Source: Halomonas sp.
GTDB taxonomy: Bacteria; Pseudomonadota; Gammaproteobacteria; Pseudomonadales; Halomonadaceae
Reading direction: 5' to 3'
Assembly: GCF_052095765.1 (NCBI RefSeq)
Contig: NZ_JBQDJZ010000001.1
Location: 11,090 to 75,089, forward strand
Length of the DNA: 64,000 bases
The position numbers and the translations under genes were made by a program. How positions within the stretch are numbered: the stretch's first letter is position 1; each line of letters opens with the position of its first letter. The notes under the pieces are model-generated. The model saw only the letters and a list, made by a program, of their open reading frames with translations, was not told the DNA's origin and did no database searches. This document shows positions 24,890-29,036 of this stretch, piece after piece.

Positions 24890-26431
24890 ATGGGAAGCCG
24901 AGTGAAATACAAGGATCTGCGTGACTTTATCGCGGCGTTGGAGGCGCGGAGAGAGCTCGTGCGCGTCACCGCTGAGGTCGATCCCTACCTTGAGATCACC
25001 GAGATCTGCGACCGCACCCTGCGCGCCGGTGGTCCGGCGTTGCTGTTCGAAAACGTCAAAGGCCATGACATGCCGCTGCTGGGCAACCTGTTCGGTACGC
25101 CGAAGCGGGTAGCGTTGGGCATGGGACAAGAGTCGGTCGGGGCGCTTCGTGAGGTGGGCGAATTGCTGGCGTTTCTCAAGGAGCCGGAGCCACCTAAGGG
25201 CTTTCGCGATGCCATGGACAAGCTGCCGATCTATCGACAGGTAATGAGCATGAGCCCCAAGGTACTGCGCCGCGCGCCAGTACAAGAGGTCGTGCTGGAA
25301 GGCGATGACGTCGATCTGGACCGGCTGCCGATTCAGCACTGCTGGCCCGGCGATGCCGCGCCACTGGTGACCTGGCCGCTGGTGATCACTCGTGGTCCTC
25401 ACAAGAAGCGTCAGAACTTGGGTATCTATCGACAGCAGAAGTTGACGAAGAACCGCCTGATCATGCGCTGGTTGTCCCATCGCGGTGGGGCGCTGGACTA
25501 TCAGGAGTTCCGCCGTCTACATCCCGAGCAGCCCTATCCGGTAGCTGTAGCTCTGGGCGCTGATCCGGCGACCATTCTCGGTGCCGTCACGCCAGTGCCG
25601 GACAGCCTTTCTGAATACGCCTTTGCTGGCTTGCTGCGCGGCTCACGCACTGAACTGGTGCGTTGTGGCCATGTGGATCTGGACGTGCCGGCGTCTGCCG
25701 AAATCATCCTCGAGGGCTTTATCTACCCCGACGATACCGCGCCAGAAGGGCCTTATGGTGATCACACCGGCTACTATAACGAGATTGAAGAGTTTCCGGT
25801 GTTTACCGTGACCCGCATGACCATGCGCCGCGACGCCATCTATCACTCGACCTATACCGGGCGGCCGCCGGATGAGCCCGCGGTGCTGGGCTTGGCGCTC
25901 AATGAAGTCTTCGTGCCCATTCTGCGCCGTCAGTTTCCCGAGATCGTCGACTTCTATCTGCCCCCCGAAGGCTGCTCCTACCGCATGGCGGTGGTGACCA
26001 TGAAAAAGCAGTATCCCGGCCATGCCAAGCGGGTGATGATGGGCGTGTGGAGTTTCCTGCGTCAGTTCATGTACACCAAGTTCGTGGTGGTATGTGATGA
26101 CGACATCAATGCGCGTGATTGGAAGGATGTGATTTGGGCGATCACGACGCGCATGGATCCAGCCCGGGACACCCTGTTGGTCGAGCATACGCCCATCGAC
26201 TACTTGGACTTTGCCTCACCCACGGCGGGGCTTGGTTCCAAGATGGGCATGGACGCCACCAACAAGTGGCCTGGCGAAACCGACCGTGAATGGGGCGAGC
26301 CCATCGTGATGGATGAAGCGGTCACAGCCCGGGTAACGCAGCGCTGGGACGAACTGGGTATTGATCTGGGTCCAGCGGAACAAACCGGCACCAGCTCGGC
26401 TCTGGTCGAAAACAATAGGAGCGACACATGA
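24890..26431 (+). CDS. ubiD: 4-hydroxy-3-polyprenylbenzoate decarboxylase
   Basis: [36 protein letters not shown]; start may be GTG 24902. Confidence 0.97.
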
Positions 26432-27198
26432 GTTCATGCACCCTGACCTGCCGGGTGGCTGAAGTGGAAGATCTGACGTCTGATGTCATGGGCGTGCGCC
26501 TGGAAGGGCGTTCTGAGGCCATGGTTCATGAAGCCGGCCAGTATCTTGAGCTTAAGCTCGATGAGGACACCTGGGTGCCGTTCTCGATTGCTAGTGCACC
26601 CAGCGGTGATGGTGTACTGGAGCTTCACATCCAGCATTGGCCAGAGCGCCGCAACACCGCACGGTTGCGTGAGATGCTGATTGAGGCGCGCCAGGTGATG
26701 GTGCACTTGCCGGGGGGGGACTGTTTACTTGACCCCGACAGCCGTCGGCCGCTGCTGCTGGTGGGTGCCGGTACCGGCTACGCGCAGATGAAAGCGTTGG
26801 CCGAAGCGGCGCTGCGTGAAGACCCCCAACGTCGTATCGAACTTTGGTGGGCGGCTCGTGAGCGGCGCGACCTGTATCTGGAATCGCTGCCACGCGAGTG
26901 GGCGGCGCAGTATCCTGGCGTACACTTTCACGGTGTCAGCGAACTTGGTATGCACGCCGATTTTGATGATGAGGCGGTAACGGGACATCAGGGGCGGATT
27001 GATCAGGCGCTGGCAAGTCAGCTCGATGATGTGTCGGCTTATGATGTCTATCTGTGCGGGTCGCCGGGCATGGTGTATGCCTGTGTCGATGTGCTCGCTT
27101 CGTTGGGCCTACGTCCGAACCGGGTATTTTCCGATGTGTTTGCCTATGCCCCGCGTGACCCGCTGGTGCCAGTGGTAGGAAATCTTTCCAGAAAATAG
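26428..27198 (+). CDS. fre: NAD(P)H-flavin reductase (Fre/UbiB-type)
   Basis: [31 protein letters not shown]; typical ubiD neighbour. Confidence 0.85.
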
Positions 27199-27312
27199 GG
27201 TTAAGGTTAAAGCAGAGGATAATGCGGCTGCAGACTTCCATTAACGTCGCTCAGCGGGCATTATATCCGCATAATATTCCGTTTCAGCCTGATGATCATG
27301 AGGGAAATAACG

Positions 27313-27438
27313 ATGGCAGAACACAATGTCTCACAAGACAGCACCGGCATCATGATGGTTGTGCTATTTCTGCTGGCGCTGGTTTTCCTGGCATGTGCGC
27401 CAGCCGTCGCCAGGTTATACGTGTTACTCGGCGCCTGA
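27313..27438 (+). CDS. Putative 41-aa single-TM small protein
   Basis: MAEHNVSQDSTGIMMVVLFLLALVFLACAPAVARLYVLLGA*, RBS-like GAGGGA upstream; below the ORF-track cutoff. Confidence 0.5.
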   Translation: MAEHNVSQDSTGIMMVVLFLLALVFLACAPAVARLYVLLGA

Positions 27439-27464
27439 TCAGCAGTGAACACAGGAGAAGCCTT

Positions 27465-27602
27465 GTGAGACCAGACCGTTCCATGATCAACATGCTGTCC
27501 CATCCGGACGTTCACCGTTCGGGTGAGGGCGTGTGTTCCACATTGTCTGGTTATTGGTATGGCAACGACTTTAGCGCCGGTGTGCCGGCGGCCCTGTCCT
27601 GA
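27465..27602 (+). CDS. Putative leader peptide 1 (45 aa, contains YWY..F)
   Basis: AGGAG 7 nt before GTG; VRPDRSMINMLSHPDVHRSGEGVCSTLSGYWYGNDFSAGVPAALS*; followed by attenuator-like hairpins. Confidence 0.45.
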   Translation: MRPDRSMINMLSHPDVHRSGEGVCSTLSGYWYGNDFSAGVPAALS

Positions 27603-27659
27603 TACATCACCAGGAACACTGAGGTCGAAAGGCACACCCGACAGGGTTGCCTCTCCCAG

Positions 27660-27700
27660 AACCCCCGGACGGCAACCCCGCCCGGGGGTTTTTGTTTGTT
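27660..27700 (+). terminator. Intrinsic terminator with competing antiterminator arm
   Basis: AACCCCCGGACGG-CAACC-CCGCCCGGGGGTT then TTTGTTTGTT; GGGTTGCC (27644-27651) is complementary to GGCAACCC (27671-27678). Confidence 0.75.
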
Positions 27701-27784
27701 GAGATTTTTATCGGGCGTTGTTTATCGAATACTGTTTAATGAATGACGGTAACATCAATGAATAGCATATCAAGGAGAGCAAAC

Positions 27785-27949
27785 ATGGCCGTAGCGTATA
27801 TTGTGTCTGACATCGAGTATCTGTCGGTGAGCACTTATTATTATTTCGGCTGGCGATTTAGCGACGCGCGGTCGGCTCACGTTGCCACCTCCGACCGTAG
27901 CACCTGTGGTGGCAAGACCCCCCACCGATGTAATCGCTCACGGAGATAA
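27785..27949 (+). CDS. Putative aromatic-amino-acid leader peptide 2 (54 aa, YYYFGWRF)
   Basis: AAGGAG RBS; MAVAYIVSDIEYLSVSTYYYFGWRFSDARSAHVATSDRSTCGGKTPHRCNRSRR*; TAA abuts the DAHP synthase RBS. Confidence 0.6.
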   Translation: MAVAYIVSDIEYLSVSTYYYFGWRFSDARSAHVATSDRSTCGGKTPHRCNRSRR

Positions 27950-27953
27950 CCCC

Positions 27954-29036
27954 ATGAATGCTTCTCTTACTGTGGCTTGCCAATCCAGTAAAACAACCCA
28001 CACAGCACGCCAGAGAACTGCTTCCGGTTTGCCGGTGTCCTTACCTGCTCCCGCTCAACTGCACCAGCGTCTGCCGGTGTCCGGCACACTTGCTGACCAG
28101 CTAGTGTCCCAGCGCCAGGCAATCCGCGATATTCTTGCCGGACACGATGACCGGTTGCTGGTCGTCGTGGGCCCTTGCTCGATTCATGATCCTACGTCGG
28201 CACTGGAATATGCCCAGCGGCTAGCGGAGCTGAGCGGAAAGATCAGCGATCGTATTCTGCCGGTGATGCGGGTCTATGTGGAAAAGCCACGCACTACGGT
28301 AGGTTGGAAAGGTCTTGCTTATGACCCAGCACTTGATGGCAGCGGCGATCTGGCGCGGGGAATCGAGCTCTCGCGGCGGCTAATGCGTGATGTCGCCATG
28401 CTTGGCCTGCCAGTGGCCACTGAACTGCTACAGCCGATGTTGGCGCCCTATCTCGATGATTTGTTGTCCTGGGTGGCCATCGGGGCGCGTACCACCGAGT
28501 CCCAGCCGCATCGCGAAATGGCCAGCGACTTGGCCGCGGTGGTGGGCTTCAAGAATGCCACCAGTGGAGACCTTCAGGTAGCGGTTGATGCCATGCAGGC
28601 GGCCGCCCATCCGCATCAGCACATTGCGCTTGGCTATGAAGGCTTGCCTGAAGTCAGACAGACCCGCGGAAATGCATATACCCACGTGGTGTTGCGTGGA
28701 GGACATGACGAGCCTAACTATCAAGCGCACTGGGTTTCCGCCGCCCGTAAGGTGCTGCTGGATGCCGGTCAGAACCCGCGGCTGATGGTCGACTGCAGTC
28801 ACGCTAACGCCCGCAAGGATCATCGTCGCCAGAGCGAGGTCATGCTCGATGTGCTGGCCCAGCGTGAAGCCGGCAATGCTGATCTGGTCGGGCTGATGCT
28901 GGAAAGTCACTTGAATGAAGGCAAGCAGCCACTGGTGCCGGGACAGCTGCGCCATGGTGTATCAGTGACCGATGCCTGCATCGGTTGGGAGACCACGGAG
29001 CATCTGCTGCTGAGTGCGGCGGAGCGGCTACGGTAA
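27954..29036 (+). CDS. 3-deoxy-7-phosphoheptulonate (DAHP) synthase, class I-alpha (AroF/G/H family)
   Basis: VVVGPCSIHD, YVEKPRTTVGWKG, IGARTTESQPHRE, GFKN, DCSHANARK, SVTDACIGW; ATG 27954 after GGAG. Confidence 0.97.
   Translation: MNASLTVACQSSKTTHTARQRTASGLPVSLPAPAQLHQRLPVSGTLADQLVSQRQAIRDILAGHDDRLLVVVGPCSIHDPTSALEYAQRLAELSGKISDRILPVMRVYVEKPRTTVGWKGLAYDPALDGSGDLARGIELSRRLMRDVAMLGLPVATELLQPMLAPYLDDLLSWVAIGARTTESQPHREMASDLAAVVGFKNATSGDLQVAVDAMQAAAHPHQHIALGYEGLPEVRQTRGNAYTHVVLRGGHDEPNYQAHWVSAARKVLLDAGQNPRLMVDCSHANARKDHRRQSEVMLDVLAQREAGNADLVGLMLESHLNEGKQPLVPGQLRHGVSVTDACIGWETTEHLLLSAAERLR

Follow-up and report, generated by a model that had tools for sequence, protein, structure and literature searches.

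Two leader open reading frames precede a DAHP synthase gene

We analyzed a 64,000-nucleotide (nt) stretch of the genome of Halomonas sp. (assembly GCF_052095765.1, contig NZ_JBQDJZ010000001.1, positions 11,090 to 75,089 of the forward strand; hereafter the window, in whose own coordinates all positions are given), with attention to the region upstream of a gene for a class I 3-deoxy-D-arabino-heptulosonate 7-phosphate (DAHP) synthase. A pair of short open reading frames (ORFs) with clusters of codons for aromatic amino acids, leader 1 and leader 2, lie in tandem in front of this gene; we refer to each leader with its associated RNA elements as unit 1 and unit 2. The comparative evidence described below indicates that they probably form one 5′ leader that contains two ribosome-sensed switches in series (Table 1). 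The gene order from 5′ to 3′ is a flavin-reductase-like gene (26428-27198), a small membrane-type ORF (27292-27438), leader 1, leader 2, and the DAHP synthase gene. The DAHP synthase scored 483 bits with NCBIfam PRK12755 and 424 bits with TIGR00034 (aroFGH), both above the respective cut-offs, and scored under the AroG and AroH equivalog cut-offs. The genome encodes two DAHP synthases, and the leaders stand in front of this copy only. In the approximately 350 nt upstream of the second gene (locus L002 on contig C66 of genome G000; 51% identical), neither an aromatic leader ORF nor a terminator was found, and this copy must be controlled otherwise than the leader-bearing one.

The ATG of leader 2 is preceded by AAGGAGAG, and the peptide reads ..STYYYFGWRFSDARS.. 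(also given as ..STYYYFGWRFSDARSAHVATSDR..). Its TAA stop codon lies 4 nt before the ATG of the DAHP synthase gene, directly behind GGAG.

Table 1 Features of the DAHP synthase leader region in window coordinates.
Feature	Position	Strand	Basis or remarks
Shine-Dalgarno sequence of leader 1, AGGAGA	27453-27458	+	6 nt before GTG 27465; relatives have a Shine-Dalgarno sequence and ATG at the matching place
Leader 1 ORF, 45 codons, MRPDRSMINMLSHPDVHRSGEGVCSTLSGYWYGNDFSAGVPAALS then stop	27465-27602	+	GTG start; TGA stop 27600-02; C-terminal part ..SGYWYGNDFSAGVPAALS then stop
Leader 1 sensor codons, TAT TGG TAT ggc aac gac TTT	27552-27572	+	Read from the sequence
Segment A, last seven sense codons of leader 1, GGTGTGCCGGCGGCCCTGTCC; 5′ strand of helix A:B	27579-27599	+	RNAalifold and pair counts
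Segment B, GGTCG..GGCACACC; pairs with either A or C	27623-27638	+	Consensus folds and pair counts
Segment C, GGGTTGCC; pairs with B (AGGCA..CCC) or, as predicted antiterminator, with D	27644-27651	+	Partial-transcript folds
Intrinsic terminator, stem AGAACCCCCGG..CCGGGGGTTTT then T-tract	27658-27700	+	Terminator scan
Segment D, GGCAACCC, within the terminator hairpin	27671-27678	+	Consensus folds and pair counts
AT-rich spacer, AATGAAT twice	27701-27772	+	87 nt from T-tract to ATG 27785
Leader 2 ORF, 54 codons, MAVAYIVSDIEYLSVSTYYYFGWRFSDARSAHVATSDRSTCGGKTPHRCNRSRR then stop	27785-27949	+	Shine-Dalgarno AGGAG 27773-77; TAA 27947-49
Leader 2 sensor codons, TAT TAT TAT TTC ggc TGG CGA TTT	27836-27863	+	Include the invariant block TGGCGATTTAGCG, 27851-27863
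Segment a, CGCGGTCGG; 5′ strand of hairpin a:b	27867-27875	+	RNAalifold
Segment c, GCCACC, loop of a:b; c:d pairing would form a pseudoknot with a:b	27884-27889	+	52 sequences
Segment e, predicted anti-Shine-Dalgarno, CTCCG..G.AGC	27889-27901	+	RNAduplex; overlaps b (CCGACCGTA, 27891-27899)
Segment d, GGTGGC	27908-27913	+	Pairing counts
Segment f, GCTC.CGGAG; holds DAHP synthase Shine-Dalgarno GGAG	27936-27945	+	RNAduplex and partner swaps
Class I (AroF/G/H-type) DAHP synthase, 360 amino acids; regulated gene	27954-29036	+	NCBIfam PRK12755 and TIGR00034

Both leaders travel with the DAHP synthase gene

Orthologous DAHP synthases, 66-81% identical to that of the window, were identified in 23 genomes of the same genus. 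Both leader ORFs occur in the same order at 21 of these 23 loci, and a leader 1 homolog that ends with a YWF-rich stretch followed by ..F(S/M/I)xGVPAAxS and the stop codon was found at 20; the N-terminal halves of both ORFs are unconserved. A protein search with the DAHP synthase itself returned only Halomonas, the closest named match being Halomonas halocynthiae with 80% identity. The sequence pattern of unit 2 was matched in about 50 named Halomonadaceae from eight genera (Halomonas, Chromohalobacter, Vreelandella, Billgrantia, Onishia, Bisbaumannia, Franzmannia, and Litchfieldella), with unit 1 upstream in nearly all of them, and the number of other matches was that expected by chance. Unit 1 was never encountered apart from this DAHP synthase among approximately 70 Halomonadaceae and 100 loci of the P15 type described below.

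The gene upstream of the leaders varies, being flavin-reductase-like in the window and a short-chain dehydrogenase in other genomes, while the leaders stay; both leaders therefore belong to the DAHP synthase gene. An earlier sequence-only reading of the window, made by a model without database searches, had proposed a stacked system acting on this one gene, and the comparison agrees in that both leaders travel with this DAHP synthase paralog whatever gene lies upstream. Its fallback explanation, that leader 1 is an orphan left by a lost aromatic gene, is contradicted by the synteny, in which leader 1 travels with the DAHP synthase gene. Two relatives provide natural controls for the two-tier model. 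At locus L017 (genome G024), leader 2 and the anti-Shine-Dalgarno (anti-SD) segment have been lost and unit 1, the Shine-Dalgarno (SD) sequence, and the gene have been kept, a natural deletion variant which shows that the tiers are separable. At locus L024 (genome G003), both units are lost and a TGA lies within the DAHP synthase frame.

The small ORF upstream of leader 1 has 48 codons, encodes one hydrophobic helix (MIMREITMAEHNVSQDSTGIMMVVLFLLALVFLACAPAVARLYVLLGA), and ends 27 nt before leader 1, with which it may share a promoter. Similar small ORFs lie at the matching place in the relatives L008-L010, L015, L018, and L019, and no family match was obtained for the 27292-27438 ORF.

Unit 1 has the architecture of a transcription attenuator

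The RNA structure of unit 1 was examined with RNAalifold and by counting pairs in 23 aligned sequences, which revealed four helices. Helix A:B joins the last codons of leader 1 (GGYGUGCC GGCGG..GUCC) with a downstream segment (GGAC..CCGC..GGCACRCC) and exhibits compensatory changes at column pairs 67:131 (UA9/CG7/UG4/GC1), 76:121 (CG15/UG4/UA3), and 79:118 (CG19/UA4). Helix C:D pairs GGGUUGCC with GGCAACCC inside the terminator and likewise covaries, with column pair 144:177 being UA16/CG5/UG1. In the terminator, 99% of the cells are paired and compensatory changes occur at the base of the stem. Across the unit 1 helices as a whole, 96% of cells are paired, compared with 35-55% when the partners are slid against each other. 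Consensus folds of partial transcripts form A:B together with C:D before the 3′ half of the terminator exists, and consensus folds in which A is masked form B:C together with the terminator.

The sensor codons are placed directly against this switch, with segment A starting 6 nt after the UUU codon of leader 1. In the relatives, leader 1 contains four to six aromatic codons within eight to ten codons, and all three aromatic amino acids are represented. Unit 1 thus has an ORF with an SD sequence, a start codon, and a cluster of end-product codons, an intrinsic terminator, and an antiterminator C:D that is mutually exclusive with it, which are the elements expected of an attenuator. It is most likely a ribosome-mediated transcription attenuator, a reading well supported by the comparison, and we infer that formation of the antiterminator depends on the position of the ribosome.

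Two other candidate elements of unit 1 were discarded: a CGCCGG-UGUG-CCGGCG hairpin in segment A, considered as a "segment 1", has a consensus energy of only -2.9 kcal/mol, and a stop codon in the -1 frame at UUUAG, considered as a safety device, is not universal in unit 1. In one public sequencing run, contigs break at 27551-27584, and one contig of 64 nt is folded back on itself at the palindrome CGCCGGTGTGCCGGCG, an assembly artifact of the hairpin and not biology.

Unit 2 has features of a possible translational switch

When unit 2 was searched for a T-tract, none was found anywhere in it, and it has no terminator. Its frame is open for 52-57 codons in 22 genomes, with insertions and deletions in multiples of three, and in all 22 the leader 2 stop codon lies -1 to 7 nt from the ATG of the DAHP synthase gene. 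The consensus structure consists of one hairpin, a:b (CGCGGUCGG:CCGACCGUG), for which 97% of cells are paired in 52 diverse sequences, with column pair 161:193 being CG31/UA9/UG6 and 162:192 represented by five pair types. Substitutions that preserve pairing and change the amino acid are common in a:b; in 14 of the 52 sequences, for example, GAC is replaced by GGC (Asp to Gly), which converts a U-A pair to U-G. The constraint is therefore on the RNA and not on the peptide. Segment a starts 7 nt after the UUU codon, and segment b shares CCG with the anti-SD.

The loop and 3′ strand of a:b read GCCACCUCCGACCG and contain CCUCC, the same letters as the anti-SD of 16S ribosomal RNA. In nearly all species, CUCCG is able to pair with the CGGAG of the DAHP synthase SD, and this putative helix, e:f, is extended by an inner helix that is clade-specific (GUGAG:CUCAC, GUAGCG:CGCUAC, or, in the window, AGC:GCU). 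The e:f duplexes have energies of -9 to -23 kcal/mol by RNAduplex, and segments e and f from the same species pair better on average than partners taken from diverged species (-12.6 versus -11.0 kcal/mol; permutation p<0.0002). Since few sequences beat shuffles when taken singly (12 of 52), we rate e:f as moderately supported. Because b and e overlap, a:b and e:f would be mutually exclusive. Segments c and d (GCCACC:GGUGGC) pair in 98% of cells in the 52 sequences with little variation, and c:d possibly locks a:b as a pseudoknot. The hairpin a:b next to the presumed stall site supplies the competing helix that characterizes translational attenuation, and unit 2 most likely acts on translation initiation, with moderate support from these comparisons.

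A further helix, z:a, between the start region of leader 2 and segment a is paired in 83% of cells and fails in Vreelandella and Chromohalobacter; we regard it as speculative. Long-range helices around leader 2 proposed by RNAalifold (CAUCG:CGAUG and AUGACCGC:GGUGGCA) were rejected, being paired in 69% of cells and not above shuffles. A programmed +1 frameshift at UUU-A that would fuse leader 2 to DAHP synthase was also rejected, since stops interrupt that frame in relatives (for example, L007). In the window, the DAHP synthase frame is open for about 40 codons upstream of its ATG (27831-27953), through TTTAGCG; given the stops in relatives, this looks accidental.

Sensor codons are biased toward slow, wobble-decoded triplets

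Codon usage in the leaders was compared with that in the DAHP synthase coding sequences of 22 genomes, which are related species and so do not provide independent counts. The leaders have TTT and TTC in a ratio of 52:16, versus 1:45 in the coding sequences (p=6e-17), and TAT and TAC in a ratio of 69:33, versus 49:72 (p=5.5e-5), a bias toward slow, wobble-decoded codons. The CGA of UGG-CGA-UUU is invariant, and CGA represents only 4% of the Arg codons in the coding sequences. The block TGGCGATTTAGCG that surrounds it is identical in 49 of 52 Halomonadaceae. From Halomonadaceae to Pseudomonas-type loci, its synonymous positions do not vary either, although CGA and TTT are rare codons. A plausible cause is selection for sensor codons that are slow and wobble-decoded at the mouth of the hairpin, and pairing of UGGCG with YGCCA beside the anti-SD (C or U at the first position in 48 of 52) is another partial reason; neither idea accounts for the whole block, and the nucleotide-invariant putative pause block (UGGCGAUUUA) is a point of interest raised by the finding.

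Unit 1 is a diverged relative of the P15 RNA

An Rfam scan of the window yielded no match above a gathering score, with P15 (RF00627) appearing at 27548-27688 with 24 bits (E 0.013). In the relatives, P15 was the sole Rfam family matched by unit 1, with scores of 49.8 (E 4.7e-7), 40.6, 39.1, 38.7, 31.3, and 30.7 bits. On the strength of these scores, we consider unit 1 to be a diverged relative of P15 that is not a member by Rfam's rule. A pattern scan of metagenome contigs for the P15-type terminator identified 118 loci (L152-L269); all eight of those scanned with Rfam were true P15 members (85-125 bits). Wherever the flank sufficed, tblastn detected a DAHP synthase, 55-65% identical, 150-260 nt downstream.

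The layout of these loci matches that of the window: leader 1 (..FYFGYWFSH(WRA) and stop), a terminator, a second ORF (M..YATYYRYD..AWRF(S/T)..), and DAHP synthase. The sequence TGGCGATTTA was found in 102 of 107 P15-terminator loci, 53-124 nt after the terminator. In type I loci, an a:b-like element, GCCGCCUCCG, and GGUGGCA are kept in unit 2, the leader 2 stop codon precedes the DAHP synthase ATG by about 60 nt, and an extra GC-rich hairpin stands between the two; type II loci have a short leader 2 (..YRYDWRFS..) and a different 3′ part. The resemblance to P15 thus comprises the aromatic leader ORF, the terminator, the second WRF(S/T) ORF, and the DAHP synthase gene, and some of the Halomonadaceae have an equal terminator stem. 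However, P15 and Halomonadaceae unit 1 differ in the helices 5′ of the terminator: the P15 model pairs the aromatic codons themselves with the region of the stop codon, whereas in Halomonadaceae the final ORF codons have a segment farther downstream as their partner.

P15 was described from Pseudomonas aeruginosa (Livny et al. 2006, PMC1524904) as a northern blot band of approximately 180 nt; a gene of 1092 nt follows on the same strand, 221 nt downstream. A band of this length fits a terminated leader transcript. The PAO1 gene downstream of P15 is presumably that of a DAHP synthase. Our literature search found no paper in which P15 is termed an attenuator, and it is filed as a gene or small RNA (sRNA).

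The two units are not detectably similar beyond a shared motif

The sequence-only reading had also proposed that a single ancestral attenuator module was duplicated and diverged, citing elements common to both units. The strings it quoted are all present in the window: CGGACGGC/CCGCCCG in the terminator at 27666-27685 and CGGTCGGC/CCGACCG at 27868-27897, GTTGCCTCTCC at 27647 and GTTGCCACCTCC at 27881, and GGCAACCCC at 27671 and GGCAAGACCCC at 27911. They do not occur in the same order in the two units, and GTTGCC and GGCAAGACCCC of unit 2 are unconserved among relatives. The best local alignment between unit 1 (27465-27700) and unit 2 (27785-27953) scores 16, compared with 16.7 +/- 2.3 for 1000 dinucleotide shuffles (p=0.68), and consists merely of CGA(C)TTTAGCG.CG; for the RNA 3′ of TTTAGCG, the same comparison gives p=0.96. 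Hidden Markov model profiles of unit 1 (from 23 sequences) and unit 2 (from 22) both recover the unit they represent when run on the 64-kb window (E 1e-39 and 1e-46, respectively), with no cross-match there at E<=10. With a 5-kb target, marginal cross-matches (E 0.002-0.09, 3-7 bits) are confined to the aromatic-codon/TTTAGCG stretch.

The clearly non-random signal lies in the conservation of each unit and in a shared motif, an aromatic run followed by UGG-(CGA)-UUU-AGC, located 6-7 nt 5′ of the first hairpin in both units. That motif, the marginal profile matches upon it, and the unit 1 terminator stem CGGTCGG..CCGACCG, which in part of the family equals the unit 2 a:b hairpin, would suit an origin of the units as ancient duplicates of one module, a history that is compatible with two tiers. 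The shared motif may instead reflect a common functional need, however, and the Halomonas and Pseudomonas types inherited the units from their common ancestor as already distinct elements, so that any duplication is too old to see. With a pairwise similarity no greater than that of shuffled sequence, the outcome that the sequence-only reading itself had named as refuting, the duplication is unsupported, nor is it disproved, and we regard it as a possibility to be doubted more than believed.

Proposed mechanism of the two tiers

A model in which both tiers respond to the charging of aromatic tRNAs would account for these features. In tier 1, a stalled ribosome would be held at the Tyr, Trp, and Phe codons just 5′ of A:B; A:B could then form, leaving C free to pair with D, and without a terminator RNA polymerase would read on. 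With charged tRNAs, the ribosome would enter segment A and stop at the UGA, covering A but not B, whereupon B would pair with C, the terminator would form, and a short RNA would be released. In tier 2, a ribosome stalled at YYYFGW-R-F would leave a:b folded, perhaps locked by c:d, and a:b would hold the invariant anti-SD CCUCCG so that the SD of the DAHP synthase gene remains free. Translation of the full leader would instead melt a:b, and once the ribosome had left, the anti-SD would pair with CGGAG and block initiation. What we infer from the arrangement is where the ribosome stands in either state, which way each switch works, and that both tiers share one transcript in this organism. As for the combination of a transcription tier and a translation tier on one gene that the sequence-only reading had put forward, comparative support is available for both halves, well for tier 1 and moderately for tier 2.

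Evidence against the model and alternative explanations

Several observations weigh against this two-tier model. In unit 1, the B:C helix is kept almost without covariation, an untranslated leader would read through under the proposed scheme, unlike in trp, and the window's own unit 1 matches P15 weakly, with 24 bits where the gathering score is 70. In unit 2, e:f taken singly beats shuffles in only 12 of 52 sequences and is paired in 77% of cells in fixed alignment columns, the fold of 27820-27975 is no more stable than shuffles (z=+0.3), and a leader ORF that ends on the SD could couple translation positively, that is, with the opposite sign. Finally, an extra promoter in the 87-nt AT-rich spacer of the window is conceivable, and contigs from the only RNA-labeled public run start at 27798 and continue onward from there at very low depth; the window's genome was recovered from a food-fermentation metagenome, the public-run contigs at this locus are unstranded, and those at the H. 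elongata locus are mixed.

These last points bear on whether the two units share a transcript at all. Leader 1 and its terminator could be a stand-alone gene for an sRNA or small ORF, namely P15, with leader 2 and DAHP synthase transcribed from a promoter at 27700-27775, as the description of P15 as an sRNA on northern blots (PMC1524904) and the start of the RNA-labeled contigs would have it. The spacer of the window is indeed the longest among 48 relatives, with AATGAAT near 27738 and again near 27759, about 21 nt apart, and it could represent an insertion, a protein-binding site, or a weak promoter. In the relatives, however, a median of 41 nt (range 15-87), and in most of them 15-45 nt, separates the terminator T-tract from the leader 2 ATG, which leaves little room for a separate promoter and 5′ untranslated region, and no sigma-70-like site was found on the + strand of the 27701-27772 spacer. 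The covarying antiterminator alternative of unit 1, its constant association with DAHP synthase, and its position directly before the gene without leader 2 at L017 also speak against independence, which we consider very unlikely. Somewhat less improbable, though still unlikely, is that tier 2 works by positive translational coupling or by Rho-dependent termination on a bare, C-rich 3′ part of leader 2. The short distance between the leader 2 stop and the DAHP synthase start in all 22 genomes is the classic geometry of coupling, the 3′ part (GGCACCCGACAGACACGAUGU..) is C-rich and devoid of consensus structure, and e:f is individually weak in many species. Either process, however, would lower DAHP synthase when aromatic tRNAs are uncharged, opposite to tier 1, and to our knowledge every known biosynthetic attenuator has the sign opposite to this prediction. 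Both would leave unexplained why CCUCCG is invariant and overlaps b and why e and f co-vary, and the leader 2 stop about 60 nt before the ATG in Pseudomonas-type loci indicates that tight coupling is not conserved. The least credible proposal, which we consider extremely improbable, is that the small ORFs are not sensors and act through their peptides, for example as modified-peptide precursors or small regulators: 45 and 54 codons are rather many for a leader peptide, and the C-terminal stretches (GVPAAxS; ATSDR..GG..RC) are conserved, but those stretches coincide with RNA helices and vary by pair-preserving amino-acid changes, the N-terminal halves are unconserved, no family match was obtained, and a search of 5.8 billion predicted proteins with leader 2 found no homolog but itself. 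We therefore retain two switches in series, the first on transcription and the second on translation initiation, as the probable arrangement.

Comparison with known leader-peptide systems

Leader-peptide transcription attenuators are exemplified by trpL, pheL, and hisL of Escherichia coli. Unit 1 resembles these in having a short ORF rich in end-product codons, alternative antiterminator and terminator structures, and an intrinsic terminator; it differs in that it would sense three aromatic amino acids at once, would control an enzyme of the common pathway, and is followed by a second tier. Moreover, the stalled ribosome proposed here would spare the first helix rather than mask it. Translational attenuation of the ermC/cat type employs a leader ORF and alternative helices, one of which hides the downstream SD. 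Unit 2 has a leader ORF as well, and its putative e:f helix would likewise hide the SD, in a balance that a stalled ribosome would shift. In ermC/cat, stalling is caused by a drug together with the nascent peptide, whereas in unit 2 it would presumably be caused by uncharged aromatic tRNA, and the leader ORF of unit 2 spans the whole switch and ends on the SD.

Two short ORFs in one leader are also found in Salmonella mgtCBR, where mgtM and mgtP lie in one long leader (PMC3641672). Each of these is likewise tied to alternative RNA structures; that system, however, senses ATP and proline, acts with both ORFs on transcription elongation, and is unrelated to aromatic amino acids. In the aroR-aroF system of Corynebacterium glutamicum, a Phe/Tyr leader peptide controls DAHP synthase by ribosome stalling (Neshat et al. 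2014, summarized in PMC11802643). The leader peptide over a DAHP synthase gene and the ribosome stalling are common to both systems, and aroR-aroF is a single unit that acts on transcription only, in a different phylum. The sequence-only reading had suggested that such a tandem leader-peptide arrangement might be undescribed, and this suggestion needs to be narrowed, given that unit 1 relates to RF00627, that tandem leader ORFs are known from mgtCBR, and that a DAHP synthase attenuator is known in aroR. We found no paper on Halomonas leaders in our literature search.

Implications

DAHP synthase sets the flow of carbon into Phe, Tyr, Trp, and many aromatic products, and in enterobacteria it is under the control of the repressors TyrR and TrpR. 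Halomonas and Pseudomonas putida serve as production hosts for aromatic compounds, for which removal of the leader is an obvious engineering lever. The finding would give the orphan Rfam "sRNA" P15 a function and, if the proposed mechanism is true, tier 2 would place an amino-acid biosynthetic gene under translational attenuation, which would be rare. Having two tiers could sharpen the response or keep already-made mRNA silent. More tentatively, and at a level of confidence well short of that for the two switches themselves, we envisage an ancient two-tier device at the entry to the shikimate pathway, present in the Pseudomonas-type bacteria and the Halomonadaceae, in which P15 would be no more than the RNA that tier 1 releases on termination, tier 2 would act as an undescribed translational attenuator, a UGG-CGA-UUU-A module would impose a pause 6-7 nt before a hairpin or pseudoknot, and the tiers could share an origin. 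If the model is true, the window's organism, and apparently Pseudomonas-type bacteria too, would use ribosome sensing of three aromatic tRNAs, applied twice, in place of repressors.

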